IMG/VR virus record: IMGVR_UViG_3300028840_002850
Coordinates: 698 to 64,697 of that record
From: a virus
Taxonomy: Duplodnaviria > Caudoviricetes
Reading direction: 5' to 3' (one strand)
Length of the DNA: 64,000 bases
Every line of letters starts with the position of its first letter. Positions within the stretch are counted from its first letter, which is position 1. Below the pieces are notes generated by a model. That model did not search any database, was not told the DNA's origin, and saw only the letters and a program-made list of their open reading frames with translations. Positions 55,451 to 59,609 of this stretch are shown here, piece by piece. A program made the translations under genes and the position numbers.

Positions 55451-57394
55451 ATGGCGACTAATATCACCGGCGTTACAATGCCTACTCCTGGTGGCGACCC
55501 CGCCATTAATGCCAATGGCAACTTCGCAATGGGGGGGCAGATAACCACAGCTGGTGGTGGCGGTTGGAGCGAGTCTGGTGATATGTATTTCCAGTGGGAT
55601 CAGGGCCTTGGCGACAGTGAGGGAAATTACGCTGACCTTGGTTCTACCGGCGATTTAAACATAGCGGCTCAGACCAATCCGATAACCGGGTTGCAGACGG
55701 AAACCGAGCAGCAAGTTACCGTTTACAACGACGGAACAGCCGGTACTTTTTATATTCGTGTTAAACTGATCGAAGACGACTTGACGGAGCATACCACCGC
55801 TGGACAACAGGTTACGGTAAGTGCTCAAGAACAGCAATCGGAATCGGTTAGCGAGAGCGCTAGCGAGAGTGCCAGCGAATCGGCGTCCGAATCCGCATCT
55901 GAGTCGGCTTCAGAGTCGGCGTCTGAGTCTGCCAGTGAAAGTCAATCAGAGTCAGCCTCAGAGAGTGCTTCTGAATCTGGATCATACAGCGCCTCAGAAT
56001 CAGAATCCGCGTCGGAATCCGCTTCTGAGAGCGCCAGCGAAAGCGCAAGCGAGTCTGCCTCCGAATCGGCGTCAGAAAGTGCCTCAGAAAGCGCCTCAGA
56101 GTCAGCTTCGGAAAGTGCTAGTTATTCTGCCTCAGAGTCAGAATCAGCATCCGAATCGGCGTCAGAATCAGCTTCCGAAAGTGCTTCCGAATCTGCCTCA
56201 GAATCAGCTTCGGAGAGCGCATCCGAGTCGGCCTCATATTCAGCATCAGAATCCGAAAGCCAAAGCGAATCCGCATCAGAAAGCGCGAGTGAGAGTGCCA
56301 GCGAATCGGCCTCAGAAAGCGCGTCGGAATCTGCAAGTGAGAGCGCAAGTGAATCGGCTAGCGAATCTGGTTCATATTCAGCTTCCGAGTCAGAGTCGAC
56401 CTCAGAAAGCCAATCGGAATCTGCGTCAGAGTCGGCCAGTGAAAGCGTGTCGGAAAGCGCTTCGGAGAGCGCATCTGAATCGGCATCTGAATCAGCAAGC
56501 CCGTCAGCATCCGGTGGAATATCCGAGAGTGCAAGCGAGAGCGCATCGGAATCGGCTTCAGAGAGTGCGTCAGAAAGTGGCAGCTATTCGGCATCGGAAT
56601 CAGAATCTCAATCCGAATCTGCCTCAGAGAGTGCCTCAGAGTCGGCATCGGAGTCACAATCAGAAAGCGCGTCCGAATCTGCCAGCGAGTCAGCTTCAGA
56701 GTCGGCGTCAGAAAGTGGCAGCTATTCGGCATCAGCATCCGAATCGGCCTCTGAGTCTGTCAGTGAGTCTGCCAGCGAATCGGCATCGTACAGCGCATCT
56801 GAATCAGAATCAGCTTCTGAAAGTGCGTCTGAATCGGCAAGTGAGTCAGCGTCCGAAAGCGCATCGTATTCTGCTTCTGAATCCGAATCGGCATCTGAAT
56901 CCGCTTCTGAGAGTGCGTCAGAGAGCGCGTCAGAGAGCGCCAGTTATTCGGCATCTGAGTCTGAATCAGCATCGGAGTCTGCCAGTGAGAGTGCCAGTGA
57001 ATCAGCAAGCGAATCAGAGTCGTATTCAGCATCTGAATCAGAATCGGCATCTGAAAGCGCATCAGAGTCAGCATCCGAATCGGCCAGTGAGAGTCAGTCT
57101 GAATCCGCATCAGAATCCGCATCAGAAAGTGCTTCTGAGAGTGCGTCTGAGAGCGCATCGGAGTCTGAGAGCGAATCTGCATCAGAATCAGCTTCAGAAA
57201 GCGCAAGTGAGAGCGCCAGCGAATCAGCGTCATATTCCGCATCAGAGTCGGAGTCGGCTAGCGAGTCGGTTTCGGAATCGGCTTCTGAGAGCGTGTCTGA
57301 GTCGGCATCACCAAGCGAATCATCTGCAAGCGCATCGGGCGGTGGGTCTGCTACCGGTGGCTGCGTATTTGTGAGTACTATATTAATTGGCTAA
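55451..57394 (+). CDS. Serine-rich repeat (mucin/SRR-like) protein
   Basis: About 125-aa globular N-terminus then about 500 aa of (SESA)n punctuated by SYSASE; no signal peptide. Confidence 0.85.
55836..57335 (+). repeat. Degenerate 12-bp coding repeat (Ser-Glu-Ser-Ala)
   Basis: Over 100 units with mixed TCN/AGY codons. Confidence 0.9.
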
Positions 57395-59609
57395 AGTATC
57401 TGTCATAATAGCAGGAAGATGTGAACAATATTTTCAAAAAACCGTTGAGTCGGTTTTTGAGTCAGCTAAAGAAGACGTTGAGGTTATGGCTGTTGTTGAT
57501 GGGCCGGGGCAAGACCCACCCGTCAAGGAAACAAAAAACACAAAGGTTATAAATCTTCCAGAATCCATCGGGCAGAGGGCAGCTTATAACATGGGTGTTA
57601 AAGAATCATGTGGTGAATATGTAATGAAGATAGATGCTCATGCCTTATTGTCGCCTGGATTTGATGTTAAGTTGAAAAACAACTGCCCACCCAAAACGGT
57701 AGTCTTGCCGGAAATGAGAAGGCTTGATCATAGGAAATGGAAACCAAAACCAAGGGGTAAAACTCTTTTCATGTATCCCGGCCTTGATTTGTACTGTCAT
57801 TACTGGAAGGATTACAAAAAACGACCAGAGGCAAAGGTTGACTATCCCGAAGTTATGACAGGGCAGGGATCGTGCTGGTTTACAACAAGGGAATGGAACG
57901 ATTATATAGGATTGCTCGATGAGGGTGTGGGATCATGGGGCAATGTCGGGATCGAGGTTTCTTTAAGAACATGGCTTTGCGGTGGTCGGCAAATAGCAAA
58001 TAAAAATTGCTGGCAAGCCCACTGGTTTAGGGTTTCAGAGGGTGGTTTCCCATATCCGTTTTCAGGAAGACAGGTAGCCAGGGCGCACAAGTACACATGG
58101 GAAAACTACTATTTTAAAGATAACGCCTTTAAAAATCAAGTTAGACCGTTTCATTGGTATATTAAAAAATTTGCTCCTGTACCTTCGTGGGAAGTTTATT
58201 TAAAAGATCAATACAAACCCAATAGAGTTATCGTATATTACACAGATAACAATCTTGAGAGATCACTTGCTGATGCGGCAAGGAAGAATTTGATAAAAGC
58301 GGCTGGGCCAATTCCGATTATAAGCGTTTCTCAGGAACCTTTAAATTTCGGTCAAAATATATGTGTCGGCAAAAAACCAAAAACAAAGTTGTCAATGTAC
58401 GAGCAAATGCTTGAGGGTGTAAAAGCCGCACCGGATGATTCTTTTATTTATCTATGTGAACACGATGTATTTTATCATTATAGCCATTTTGAAAAAGTAC
58501 CGCCCAAAGATGATGCTGTATGGATAAACCAAAATAAATATCACTGGCAGCAGGGAAATCATTTTTATCTAAAGGCGAAGGACCAGAAAGCATGGAGCAT
58601 GGCAACTGGTTCTAAAAAATATTTATTAGAAAAACTTGAAACCACCGTTAAAAATAAAATGGGTGAAATGAAGGTTAGGTGGTTTAAGTATAATAGTGAA
58701 CGGCCAAACATTGATATACGGCATGATAGGAACTTAACAAAAGGAATAAAAGCACACAAGAAACAGATTTTTAATATCGCAGGGTGGGGAAGCCCTAAAC
58801 ATTTTAAATCCGTTGCAAAATATAAAGGGACAATGCGGTTTGATATAATTCAATGGCTAATAGATTTTTATGATTTTACATCGTACCTTGAGATTGGAGT
58901 AAATAAGGGGCATACGTTTAAAGTTATAAAATGCGAGTTAAAGCATGGCGTTGATCCCAAAAGTAAATTTGCAACACACAAGGTAACAAGTGACGAATAT
59001 TTTAAAGGTTGTGATTTAAAATACGATATTATTTTCGTAGACGGGTTGCATGAACACTCACAGGTAAAGCGGGACATCTTAAATTCACTTGATCATTTAA
59101 AGCCGGGTGGGGTTATTGTGGTTCACGATTGTAAACCCCGTAATGAAAAAGAGCAGCACGTTCCCAAGCTTCCTAACCAAAAAATATGGGTTGGAGATGG
59201 GTGGAAAGCATTTGTTGAGTTACGCGAACGCAATGATCTTTATATGTATGTTGTGGATACAAATAATGGCGTTGGAATAATCCGGCGCGGTTTTCAGGTG
59301 CCACTAAAAAGAGATTGCCCTCTTGATTGGGTAAATTTTCAAAGAAATACAAAACGATGGTTGAAATTAAAAACGCCGGATGAATTTAAAAAATTTGAGC
59401 ATGACCTTTTTGAAGTTAAGAAATACAAACCGATGTCGCTTAAAATGATGGAAAAGCAGGGTGGTCGGCCAGGAACCATTTGTCAAGAATTAAGGGAAGT
59501 GTATTACAACATAGACAGTGAAGACCTAAAATATAAACTTCGGGTTTGTATGGCAATGGTTAAGTCGATGCACAGGCGCTTAAACGAATACAAAGAAAAC
59601 TTGTCTTAA
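57387..59609 (+). CDS. Multidomain glycosyltransferase: ppGalNAc-T-like GT-A + second GT-A-like domain + class I methyltransferase
   Basis: [34 protein letters not shown]...[19 protein letters not shown]...IFVDGLH...GGVIVVHD. Confidence 0.8.

Follow-up and report, generated by a model that had tools for sequence, protein, structure and literature searches.

Mucin-type O-glycosylation and the GT27 enzymes that initiate it are treated as a eukaryotic invention. The locus described here raises the question of whether a bacterial virus encodes a related enzyme and, if so, which molecule this enzyme would glycosylate. The window, that is, the whole stretch of 64,000 nucleotides analysed, derives from a complete, uncultured, temperate phage of 64.7 kb. 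Positions 57387..59609 of its plus strand form a single ORF of 740 amino acids with a TTG start, which belongs to the late structural operon, the integrase gene of the phage lying far away. Its start is overlapped by 8 nt by the end of the gene of a serine-repeat protein (55451..57394, plus strand, 647 amino acids). The 740-aa protein is predicted to be a soluble, cytoplasmic enzyme of three domains. It has no membrane segment, its fold begins at residue 3 and the first beta strand at residue 4, and it lacks the hydrophobic N-terminal segment that GT27 enzymes possess as type II membrane proteins of the secretory pathway. Among the phage ORFs scanned no nucleotide-sugar enzyme was found. The phage also encodes a PAPS-reductase-like protein and a DNA N6/N4 methylase, and its DNA-metabolism genes lie on the opposite strand, 40 kb from the glycosyltransferase (GT) gene.

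Domain 1 (aa 1-275; 57387..58211, plus strand) has a GT-A fold of the DxH/C-His type and is closest to GT27. The initial annotation had taken 57387-58200, i.e. aa 1-271 and the whole of the first domain, for a GT27-like transferase with DxH in place of DxD and a Gal/GalNAc-T-like motif, and the motifs that it quoted are all present in the ORF. These comprise K81-I-D83-A-H85 (nt 57627-57641), the segments G159-170 and I174-200, C208WQAHWFR215, which includes AH212WFR, and P222YPF225; the key residues are D38, K81, D83-A-H85 (57633-57641), E190 (57954-57956), W196-L-C-G-G200 and H212 (58020-58022)-W-F-R215. Sequence, profile, Foldseek and fold comparisons agree with this reading of the domain. 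Searched as a single sequence against the PDB sequences, it gave 18 distinct matches at E<=1, of which 16 are polypeptide GalNAc-transferases (best 6s22, E 2.6e-8), one is a Leptospira GT and one a methyltransferase. With a family profile built from 26 sequences (281 positions), the 16 best distinct PDB sequences were all GT27 (E 2.3e-24 to 3.4e-11) and spanned approximately positions 3-252 of the 281, while the match to the GT2 structures 6p61, 3bcv, 5hea and K4CP was limited to positions 3-101, the N-terminal half. The AlphaFold model of the domain (pLDDT 92.4) led to the same family, as all 31 Foldseek rows among the matches listed (ranks 1 to 48) were GT27. The comparison with GALNT structures also came out in favour of GT27 in an all-against-representatives structural search. 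GalNAc-T1 reached Z 26.0, with an rmsd of 2.9 over 271 of the 275 residues, and TgGalNAc-T3 followed at Z 24.2, while the family ranked next did not exceed 18.7 (K4CP Z 18.7, WrtF 18.3, heparosan synthase 18.2). The GT27 resemblance is far beyond chance, and domain 1 is nearer to GT27, in sequence and in fold, than to the other families with a solved structure.

The residues that define this type are strictly kept in a family that comprises 1,332 50%-identity clusters at E<=0.001. Counting aligned non-gap domains only, D83, H85 and H212 are each present in 121/121 domains of the set of 120 close homologues, and among 149 50%-cluster representatives in 155/155, 154/154 and 157/157 domains, respectively, with E190 in 152/156. 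In the alignments, the VGHVFR segment of GalNAc-T1 and T3 has its counterpart in H212-W-F-R215. The available text of Taujale et al. 2020 (PMC7185993) describes the replacement of DxD by DxH as confined to GT27 and GT60, families that both carry out polypeptide Ser/Thr O-glycosylation, and the metal as bound by the C-His in GT27. The likeness to the Gal/GalNAc-T motif is weaker than the initial annotation implied: W, G and E190 are kept, but the counterpart of WGGEN.E is W184-G-N-V-G-I-E190, in which Val-Gly replaces Glu-Asn, and GalNAc as the donor is therefore unsupported. At position 187, the close domains have V in 119 of 121 cases, and the cluster representatives have Q, E, M or V. G188 aligns with the Asn of WGGEN, so that no carboxylate base is found there, as in retaining enzymes; this position would correspond to that of the xED catalytic base. 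With DxH and G188, domain 1 departs from the GT2 signature of DxD plus a carboxylate base at xED.

PF00535 (Glycos_transf_2) matches aa 7-171 (39.2 bits vs a cut-off of 23.3) and all 26 family members, and since this model covers the GT27 catalytic domains as well, the match fails to discriminate GT2 from GT27. Glyco_transf_7C, which covers the WGGEN region, had no match at E<=1 among the 26 family members; in three of the ESM Atlas neighbour clusters listed, it is carried by 20-52% of the members. PF11397 (GT60) matched one of the 26 members (E 0.0094), the window protein being unmatched at E<=0.1. The ricin lectin domain, noted as missing in the initial annotation, is indeed missing, as no ricin/lectin Pfam match was obtained at E<=0.1. 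We regard the 740-aa enzyme as related to the DxH clade of GT27 and GT60. Identity as a bona fide GT27 was considered and rejected in view of the lacking lectin domain, the lacking membrane anchor and the change of WGGEN to WGNVG.

The C-terminal 465 residues consist of a second GT-A fold and a methyltransferase, and both parts of the predicted fusion were confirmed. Domain 2 (aa 276-483; 58212..58835, plus strand; model pLDDT 92.7) has a generic GT-A/nucleotide-sugar-transferase fold, in which E358-H359-D360 (58458-58466) terminates a beta strand, at the usual place of DxD, and is invariant in 24 of 24 sequences. Its best fold matches are CHPF (Z 13.6), B4GALNT1 (12.9) and CgT (12.6), IspD-type nucleotidyltransferases tie with the glycosyltransferase matches at Z ~12, the best Foldseek match is WrtF (1.4e-5), and no Pfam match was found. 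Domain 3 (aa 484-740; 58836..59609, plus strand) is a class I SAM methyltransferase of the Methyltransf_24 type (PF13578, E 2.1e-11, aa 527-582) with D547, D552, H555, G575, H580 and D581 as invariant residues. In the homologues its place is taken by one of two different Methyltransf_24 subtypes, and the C-terminal extension of about 90 amino acids occurs in only some of them. The stop of the GT gene is overlapped by the start of a gene for a separate methyltransferase of 163 amino acids (59609..60100, plus strand; Methyltransf_11 type, PF08241, E 2.8e-8), homologues of which follow the GT gene downstream in three of the 18 related viral loci.

The serine-repeat protein, the proposed acceptor, is made up of an N-terminal domain of 130 amino acids (55451-55840), an (S-x)n repeat of 496 amino acids, mostly SESA (55841-57328), and a hydrophobic C-terminal tail of 21 amino acids (57329-57391), all on the plus strand. 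Ser occupies 246 of 248 alternate positions of the repeat, and the candidate acceptor offers Ser but no Thr. Each of the six Ser codons occurs (TCA 63, TCG 45, AGC 44, TCT 40, AGT 31, TCC 24) and the DNA repeats of the region are degenerate, being only 64-95% alike, which argues that selection at the protein level maintains the repeat. The sequence has neither a signal peptide nor an LPXTG motif. Matches to the NCBIfam SD-repeat adhesin models (ClfA and Sdr repeat regions) are compositional. The N-terminal domain matched no Pfam or PHROG family, and none was found that would link the SESA protein to the virion.

Linkage of the two genes extends well beyond this phage. An (S-x)n ORF is present in 17 of 18 related viral loci, abutting the GT gene upstream in 12 and lying at most ~5 kb upstream or directly downstream in the rest; the independent cases are fewer, as some of these loci are near-duplicates (L003, L004 and L005 have identical repeat-protein tails, and L015 matches L018). 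The N-terminal domains of the (S-x)n proteins vary, with Laminin_G_3 in L011 and L013, CBM96 in L017 and none detected in the others. That of the window protein had no blastp match in the 18 loci, even in L002, the GT of which is 84% identical to the window GT. Distant, single-domain homologues with 30-43% identity were found in 75 MAG loci, 21 of which have an (S-x)n ORF nearby; these ORFs are on the GT strand in 23 of 23 cases and abut the GT in four. The remaining 54 have none within the locus sequence, many of the loci being short. Among full-length MAG loci the count is 10 of 29, compared with 0 of 40 control regions of 20 kb drawn from only five of the same MAG genomes (Fisher p 5.9e-5). 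In two of the MAG loci a Thr-rich (L025) or a Ser/Thr-rich protein (L086) stands in place of the (S-x)n ORF. The cassettes recur beside capsid or tail genes of different phage types, together with Methyltransf_24, Methyltransf_11 (in the MAG cassettes L033 and L061) and NDP-sugar enzyme genes, the latter including RmlD-type, epimerase and UDP-glucose dehydrogenase genes in the MAG cassettes. The GT27-like genes and the (S-x)n proteins thus keep company in phages as well as in the MAG loci, and this linkage lends independent comparative support to a putative peptide O-glycosyltransferase acting on the SESA protein.

We propose that the phage probably glycosylates and methylates its own serine-repeat fibre in the cytoplasm of the host. 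The gene of the GT27-like enzyme directly follows that of the serine-repeat protein, which suggests that the phage sugar-coats this fibre; the assignment of the acceptor is one of guilt by association. Domain 1, as a metal-dependent GT-A transferase with a D83-x-H85 plus H212 triad, a type otherwise restricted to the eukaryotic families GT27 and GT60, would most likely transfer a sugar from a host nucleotide-sugar onto the Ser hydroxyls of the (SESA)n repeat encoded upstream. The reaction would probably retain the configuration of the sugar. Domain 2, with EHD instead of DxD, would most likely add a further sugar, and domain 3 together with the adjacent 163-aa enzyme would most likely O-methylate the glycan. 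The order "initiate, extend, cap", suggested in the initial annotation, is presumed. The product may be a mucin-like, sugar-coated stalk of a glycosylated virion fibre, linking the variable N-terminal domain, lectin-like in relatives, to the short conserved C-terminal tail. In the literature searched, glycosylation of a phage serine-repeat fibre by such an enzyme was not found.

The enzyme could instead modify a glycan that is not part of a protein, such as a host envelope polysaccharide, LPS or teichoic acid, which would amount to lysogenic conversion, or a lipid-linked oligosaccharide, with the serine-repeat gene a mere neighbour in the tail-fibre module. Serotype-converting transferases are often carried by temperate phages, and this phage, having an integrase, is temperate. 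The Pfam assignment of domain 1 to Glycos_transf_2, the polysaccharide enzymes among its next-best folds (K4CP, WrtF and heparosan synthase) and the RmlD-type, epimerase and UDP-glucose dehydrogenase genes of the MAG cassettes, typical of polysaccharide loci, point the same way. We nevertheless consider such a target unlikely. The 740-aa protein is devoid of a membrane segment, its gene overlaps the repeat gene within the late structural operon with the integrase far off, and the (S-x)n linkage persists at 30-43% GT identity and across different phage types, with 0 of 40 in the controls. DxH plus C-His is, moreover, described as confined to the peptide-glycosylating GT27/GT60 in the available text of PMC7185993. 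A target in DNA or among small molecules, i.e. the sugar of a hypermodified base, a nucleotide or a natural product that is subsequently methylated, is very improbable. PHROGs label the methyltransferase part "DNA methyltransferase", but the region so labelled is confined to aa 536-611 and has a SAM fold of generic type; the PAPS-reductase-like gene and the DNA N6/N4 methylase would fit such a target, but the DNA-metabolism genes lie 40 kb off on the other strand. The methyltransferase of Che8 gp108 also matches TylF, a small-molecule sugar O-methyltransferase; the serine-repeat linkage would, however, be left unexplained. A term search of a paper on glycosylated 5-hydroxycytosine (PMC13326640) yielded no information on families for or against a DNA target.

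If a protein is glycosylated, its identity has still to be weighed, since the main acceptor could be another virion protein, a capsid protein or the giant protein encoded 1.4 kb downstream, with the repeat protein not the main or not the only acceptor. The giant ORF (2,514 amino acids) is rich in Thr, Ala, Asp and Gly, with 13% Thr. The acceptors in mycobacteriophages are capsid and tail-tube proteins, as given in the available parts of PMC12363180 and PMC11256854, and both the 54 of 75 MAG loci with a transferase and no (S-x)n ORF in the locus sequence and the Thr-rich and Ser/Thr-rich substitutes in L025 and L086 would accord with a different acceptor. It is, however, the repeat gene that stands in tight, translationally coupled adjacency, as seen in 12 of the 18 viral loci, and the giant ORF opens with a signal-like hydrophobic segment, owing to which its product may be exported from the cytoplasm in an unfolded state and out of reach of a soluble enzyme. 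We therefore regard another main acceptor as distinctly unlikely, and the serine-repeat protein as the probable one.

Comparison with known systems delimits what is new in the proposed glycosylation of the serine-repeat fibre. With the GT27 enzymes (GalNAc-T1, T2, T3, T4, T7, T9, T10, T12 and Toxoplasma GalNAc-T3) the phage domain shares a GT-A domain aligned end to end (271 of 275 residues), DxH, the C-terminal His, the W..GG and H.FR segments, the lack of a carboxylate at the position of the WGGEN Asn and, presumably, long Ser-rich, mucin-like repeats as acceptors. Unlike these enzymes, to which its identity is only ~17-22%, the phage enzyme has no ricin-type lectin domain, type II anchor or Golgi lumen to work in, being predicted to be cytoplasmic; its WGNVG lacks the sugar-contacting Glu-Asn pair, its GT27-like domain is joined in one polypeptide to another GT-A domain and a methyltransferase, and its candidate acceptor has Ser but no Thr. 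Some GT60 members are soluble, cytoplasmic and without a lectin domain. GT60 (Skp1 Gnt1 of Dictyostelium and Toxoplasma, and trypanosome OGNT) has DxH for DxD, like the phage domain, and groups with GT27 as peptide O-glycosyltransferases in the available text of PMC7185993; no GT60 entry occurred among the matches listed in the sequence, profile, Foldseek and fold searches of domain 1.

Phage particles are generally taken not to be glycosylated, recent mycobacteriophage cases excepted. Transferases encoded by mycobacteriophages add sugars to the capsid and tail-tube proteins of the same phage in the bacterial cytoplasm, the cases being Che8 gp108-110, Corndog gp38 and Myrna (Freeman et al. 2023, via the available parts of PMC12363180 and PMC11256854). 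Che8 gp108, a fusion of PF00535 and PF13578/TylF, resembles the window protein with its PF00535 and PF13578, whereas Che8 gp110 and Corndog gp38 are GT25-like, and the acceptors given in those parts belong to the capsid and the tail tube and include no dedicated Ser-dipeptide-repeat protein. The family profile matched neither of two genomes (Che8 and Corndog) at E<=1, a weak negative from a first-look filter that returned no candidates, and BLASTP of the window enzyme against Che8 gp108 gave E 0.13, which suggests that the studied mycobacteriophage system uses other transferases.

Serine-rich repeat proteins (SRRPs; GtfA/GtfB) and the staphylococcal SD-repeat adhesins (SdgA/SdgB) have a long Ser-dipeptide stalk that joins a binding domain to a C-terminal anchor, are encoded beside their own glycosyltransferases and are glycosylated in the cytoplasm by initiating enzymes of GT-B fold (GT4). 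The phage locus is similar in that a Ser-dipeptide repeat, here the candidate acceptor, is encoded beside a transferase. It differs in that this transferase is of the GT-A, DxH type, the repeat protein has no signal peptide, accessory Sec genes or LPXTG motif (no Sec genes were found among the window ORFs scanned), and the locus belongs to a phage and not to a cellular adhesin. SunS-type glycocin S/O-glycosyltransferases (GT2, SPbeta prophage) likewise are prophage GT-A enzymes with the peptide encoded nearby, but SunS is a weak fold match (7msp, Z 12.4) of the DxD type and modifies a short bacteriocin peptide.

Serine-repeat proteins are genetically linked to a large family of phage-borne enzymes that bear the GT27/GT60 catalytic signature. 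Were the proposed function true, this family would offer a prokaryotic system in which peptide O-glycosylation of the GT27/GT60 type could be tested, and would bear on the origin of this clade, and sugar-coated fibres would be expected on many environmental phages, where they would matter for host recognition, adhesion, stability and immune recognition. A wider and more speculative possibility, which we put forward tentatively, is that soluble DxH-type peptide O-glycosyltransferases form a large family in phages of uncultivated bacteria, including phages linked to CPR/Patescibacteria and DPANN bins. This family would be the prokaryotic-virus counterpart and possibly the evolutionary source of GT27/GT60, and would build, in the cytoplasm of bacteria, truly mucin-like, methyl-capped "bottle-brush" fibres with interchangeable lectin-like heads, which would serve adhesion or shielding. 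As a soluble polypeptide of 740 amino acids combining two putative transferases and a methyltransferase, the enzyme is a compact candidate tool for glycoengineering of Ser-repeat peptides in E. coli.

Directly downstream of the 163-aa methyltransferase gene, a conserved protein of 111 amino acids is encoded (60104..60439, plus strand), the membership of which in the cassette is uncertain. No Pfam or PHROG family was found for it. It has 13 blastp matches across 12 of the 18 related viral loci, with 51-74% identity over ~102 amino acids (at least 64% in 12 of the 13), and longer ORFs of other phages carry it as an N-terminal module.

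The transferase is the 740-aa product of an ORF at 57387..59609 (+) that begins with a TTG codon, a start that is sound because homologues share the same N-terminal beginning. All motifs quoted for it in the initial annotation are present in the translation: KIDAH (aa 81-85), two longer segments (aa 159-170 and 174-200), CWQAHWFR (aa 208-215) and PYPF (aa 222-225). Pfam assigns aa 7-171 to Glycos_transf_2 (E 8.6e-10) and aa 527-582 to Methyltransf_24 (E 2.1e-11). The proposed resemblance of the N-terminal domain (domain 1, aa 1-275) to GT27, the eukaryotic polypeptide GalNAc-transferases that start mucin-type O-glycosylation, proved real and specific by PDB sequence search, family profile and fold comparison. 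When the single sequence was compared with all PDB chain sequences, 16 of the 18 distinct matches at E<=1 were polypeptide GalNAc-transferases, the best being GalNAc-T3 (PDB code: 6s22, E 2.6e-8); the other two were a Leptospira transferase and a methyltransferase. With a profile built from 26 sequences (domain 1 and 25 single-domain relatives of 30-66% identity), the top 16 distinct PDB sequences were all GT27, from E 2.3e-24 (GalNAc-T1) to 3.4e-11 (Toxoplasma GalNAc-T3), and these matches span approximately positions 3-252 of the 281 profile positions. Ordinary GT2 structures rank after GT27 in this search and match the nucleotide-binding half only (profile positions 3-101). NCBIfam gave N-terminal GT2 matches only, all sub-threshold.

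The AlphaFold model of domain 1 is of high confidence (pLDDT 92.4, pTM 0.92). In a Foldseek search with this model, all 31 rows listed (ranks 1 to 48) were GT27. A structural search of a different type against 48,161 representative chains placed GalNAc-T1 (PDB code: 8v9q) at Z 26.0, with 271 of the 275 residues superposed at an rmsd of 2.9, and Toxoplasma GalNAc-T3 at Z 24.2, followed by the chondroitin polymerase K4CP (Z 18.7), ordinary GT2 enzymes (Z 16-18) and SunS (12.4).

The residues expected of the catalytic site are conserved. Every fetched protein was aligned to the family profile and non-gap domains were counted, both for the 120 close homologues and for 149 representatives of 50%-identity clusters. 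D83 is invariant in the two sets (121/121 and 155/155), as are H85 (121/121 and 154/154) and H212 (121/121 and 157/157); E190 is found in 121/121 and 152/156, and W196 and G199-G200 are nearly invariant across the aligned domains. According to a study of the GT-A fold (Taujale et al. 2020, PMC7185993), GT27 and GT60 alone show the replacement of DxD by DxH, have polypeptide Ser/Thr O-glycosylation in common and fall into one clade with GT7 and a chondroitin-synthase GT2 subfamily. The position of K4CP as the third-best fold match of domain 1 fits such a clade. The same text describes a C-terminal His that binds the metal in GT27, and an xED Asp that serves as the base in inverting enzymes but varies among the retaining ones (PMC7185993). 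HMMER alignments set V187-G188 of the phage enzyme opposite the Glu-Asn of the GT27 WGGEN motif. From the GT7/GT27 literature, we take the Asn of this motif to occupy the position of the xED Asp. The fact that V187-G188 offers no carboxylate suggests, without showing it, a retaining mechanism for domain 1, and it also means that a donor other than UDP-GalNAc is possible. Across the wider family Q, E, M or V is found at position 187, which suggests that donors differ among its members.

The enzyme differs from GT27 in having neither a ricin lectin domain nor a membrane anchor; the Pfam scan found no lectin domain, as had been anticipated from the sequence. None of 26 family members matched Glyco_transf_7C at E<=1 and one of the 26 matched the GT60 model (E 0.0094); Glyco_transf_7C is found on 20-52% of the members in three ESM Atlas neighbour clusters, among those listed. 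Given the missing lectin domain and anchor and these model results, we would place the transferase in a separate family of the DxH clade and not as a member of GT27.

The fusion to a second GT-A-like domain and a methyltransferase is also borne out, the former as a predicted fold. Domain 2 (aa 276-483) is modelled confidently (pLDDT 92.7) with a generic GT-A/nucleotide-sugar-transferase fold; its best structural matches are CHPF (Z 13.6), B4GALNT1 (12.9) and CgT (12.6), tied with IspD-type nucleotidyltransferases at Z ~12, and its best Foldseek match is WrtF (1.4e-5). Its EHD motif, E358-H359-D360, is invariant in 24/24 sequences and lies, by secondary structure, at the strand-end position of the DxD site of GT-A enzymes. 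The C-terminal domain (domain 3, aa 484-740) is a Methyltransf_24-type SAM enzyme by Pfam, and a separate 163-aa Methyltransf_11 enzyme is encoded after the transferase gene. In an alignment of homologues of aa 484-740, the proteins are collinear except at the C-terminus, where either of two Methyltransf_24 subtypes that look unrelated is found; this suggests that the methyltransferase module has been swapped and the two transferase domains retained. A metagenomic protein of 1,170 aa (P0099) carries the GT27-like and middle domains in two tandem copies, followed by a methyltransferase.

Immediately upstream of the transferase gene, and overlapping its start by 8 nt, ends the gene of a serine-repeat protein (55451..57394, +). 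Its 647 aa comprise a 130-aa N-terminal domain, a 496-residue repeat with Ser in 246 of the 248 alternate positions (S 247, E 117, A 100) and a 21-residue hydrophobic tail. Because all six Ser codons are in use and similarity among the DNA repeats is no more than 64-95%, the repeat is, by its codon usage, maintained by selection on the peptide and not by recent DNA expansion. Long open frames over the repeat in other frames (55821-57374 in the +2 frame and 55860-57242 on the minus strand; 517 aa and several of 62-160 aa) were rejected as genes and regarded as by-products of repeat composition. The N-terminal domain had no blastp match in any of 18 related viral loci; among the related repeat proteins this domain is Laminin_G_3 in two loci (L011, L013), CBM96/disaggregatase in another (L017) and of no family in the others. 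A hydrophobic C-terminal tail of ~25 residues, (A/L)-P-I-I-S-x-x-G-I-H-S-x-x-M-G-G-x-I-x-x-G, is common to 9 of 11 repeat proteins, those of L003, L006-L009 and L012-L014 among them, with a shorter variant in the window (57329-57391) and in its closest relative, L002. Such differing N-terminal domains, together with the repeat and the shared tail, point to a layout of variable head, Ser-repeat stalk and conserved short tail; the tail could serve to anchor the protein in the virion or to dock the enzyme.

The pairing of transferase and repeat protein recurs. An ORF whose (S-x) repeat is 30 residues or longer is encoded in 17 of the 18 related viral loci, whose transferases are 32-84% identical; there are fewer than 17 independent cases, since the repeat-protein tails of L003, L004 and L005 are identical and L015 and L018 are duplicates. 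In 12 of the 18 loci the end of the repeat ORF and the start of the transferase are within 15 nt of each other; the repeat ORF lies 0.6 kb upstream in L009 and 0.6-0.7 kb downstream in L015, L016 and L018, and is present twice in L017, 4.9 kb upstream and directly downstream. The most distant viral locus, L019, has no (S-x) repeat ORF. Scanning prokaryotic genomes, one per species, with a profile of seven single-domain relatives gave 75 further loci in metagenomic bins. Most of these loci belong to bins with a Patescibacteria/CPR group or 'uncultured Gammaproteobacteria' label; Anaerolineae, Planctomycetota, Nanoarchaeota and methanogen bins also occur. Of the 75 loci, 21 contain an (S-x)n ORF, SPSxSPS being the predominant type, and the other 54, many of them short, are without a repeat gene; the repeat ORFs, 23 in all, share the strand of the transferase, and four lie directly against it. 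None was found in forty 20-kb control regions (800 kb) from five of these genomes, chosen at a distance from the transferase genes, compared with 10 of 29 full 20-kb loci (Fisher p 5.9e-5, the control representing five genomes only). The bin cassettes consist of 2-4 GT27-like paralogues, 1-3 Methyltransf_24, Methyltransf_11 and RmlD/epimerase or UDP-glucose dehydrogenase genes, then the repeat protein. In five ~1-Mb bins (G001-G005, the genomes of L033, L059, L061, L063 and L083) 2-4 full-length GT27-like paralogues lie within ~12 kb, some fused to extra domains in open frames of 527-657 aa. The cassette of L056 comes after genes for a phage minor capsid protein, a scaffold and a P22-type coat, and that of L020 after a phage tail tube gene. 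At least some of the bin loci are thus prophages or mis-binned phages of other morphotypes, and the pairing consequently crosses phage types. A pattern search for SESA-type repeats matched at least 606 stretches; four were confirmed among the matches listed, three of them loci already in the set.

We propose that the enzyme, soluble and cytoplasmic, would be made together with the repeat protein from the overlapping genes; domain 1 would add the first sugar to the repeat serines, domain 2 would lengthen the sugar chain and the methyltransferases would cap sugar hydroxyls. On the virion, the glycosylated stalk would bear a head that is variable and in many cases lectin-like.

Other targets have to be weighed against the repeat serines. 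A transferase directed at glycans or at the envelope is an improbable reading. That the acceptor is another virion protein seems slightly less probable still. A DNA or small-molecule target is very improbable, and we give the DNA-modification reading low weight.

Mycobacteriophages glycosylate their own capsid and tail-tube proteins with phage-encoded transferases, according to two reports (PMC12363180, PMC11256854). One of these phage proteins, Che8 gp108, is a fusion of GT2 and Methyltransf_24/TylF and parallels the domain logic of the present enzyme; no homology between the mycobacteriophage transferases and this enzyme was detected at the level tested. On the acceptor side the closest analogue is the bacterial serine-rich-repeat adhesins, which are glycosylated by GT-B enzymes, in contrast to the GT-A fold here. 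The literature covered, which excludes most subscription journals, yielded no account of GT27-like phage enzymes that accompany serine-repeat proteins. The window contributes a GT27-like/GT-A/methyltransferase fusion in a single polypeptide with 657-plus homologues, the conserved tail of the repeat proteins, the background control and the parallel with Che8 gp108.

These 657 homologues were obtained by a word-indexed protein search at E<=0.001. Among the 120 listed (63-100% identity in domain 1), 108 have both Pfam domains and the remaining 12, of 409-540 aa, have the transferase only. An exhaustive search of 1.84 billion cluster representatives gave 1,332 matches at E<=0.001, of which 564 reach 1e-10 and 169 reach 1e-30, with many architectures. 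In the ESM Atlas, the neighbouring clusters are named 'Glycosyl transferase family 2', and their members with a record are 90-100% viral. In tblastn against 50,697 cultured phage records the transferase domains had no match, and 9 records matched the methyltransferase part only (aa 484-632).

The source record is a complete uncultured virus of 64,697 bp with direct terminal repeats of 144 bp; the window omits its first 697 bases. PHROGs identify a tailed phage, with large terminase, portal, major head protein, internal virion protein, tail-spike-like protein and a 1,760-aa giant protein, and Pfam adds an SU10-type adaptor, three beta-helix proteins, an integrase and ERF/YqaJ recombination genes. 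The Pfam scan found no nucleotide-sugar synthesis genes among the window ORFs. The transferase and repeat-protein genes are at the distal end of the late, rightward structural operon. The 1,760-aa protein (49168-54450) has a ParB-like nuclease/partition segment at aa 710-771, and its C-terminal region resembles giant proteins of phages, DarB-like antirestriction families among them. Its probable role is that of an internal virion protein that is ejected. Once the terminal repeat is collapsed, a 2,514-aa ORF spans the genome-end junction (61008-64000 into 1-3999). Its giant fibre-like product is rich in Thr, Ala, Asp and Gly, begins with a signal-like hydrophobic segment (MKKRFLALTLLIIFTAGLAYA) and matched no Pfam or PHROG family. 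On the minus strand of the early region, a DNA N6/N4 methylase and a PAPS-reductase-like protein (13906-14694 and 16314-17030) may form a DNA modification module. A 111-aa protein (60104-60439) has 13 blastp matches in 12 of the 18 related phage loci, at 51-74% identity (12 of 13 at least 64%); in many of these loci the counterpart makes up the initial ~105 residues of a longer ORF, of up to 451 aa. The 111-aa protein resembles a conserved N-terminal attachment module, free-standing in the window.
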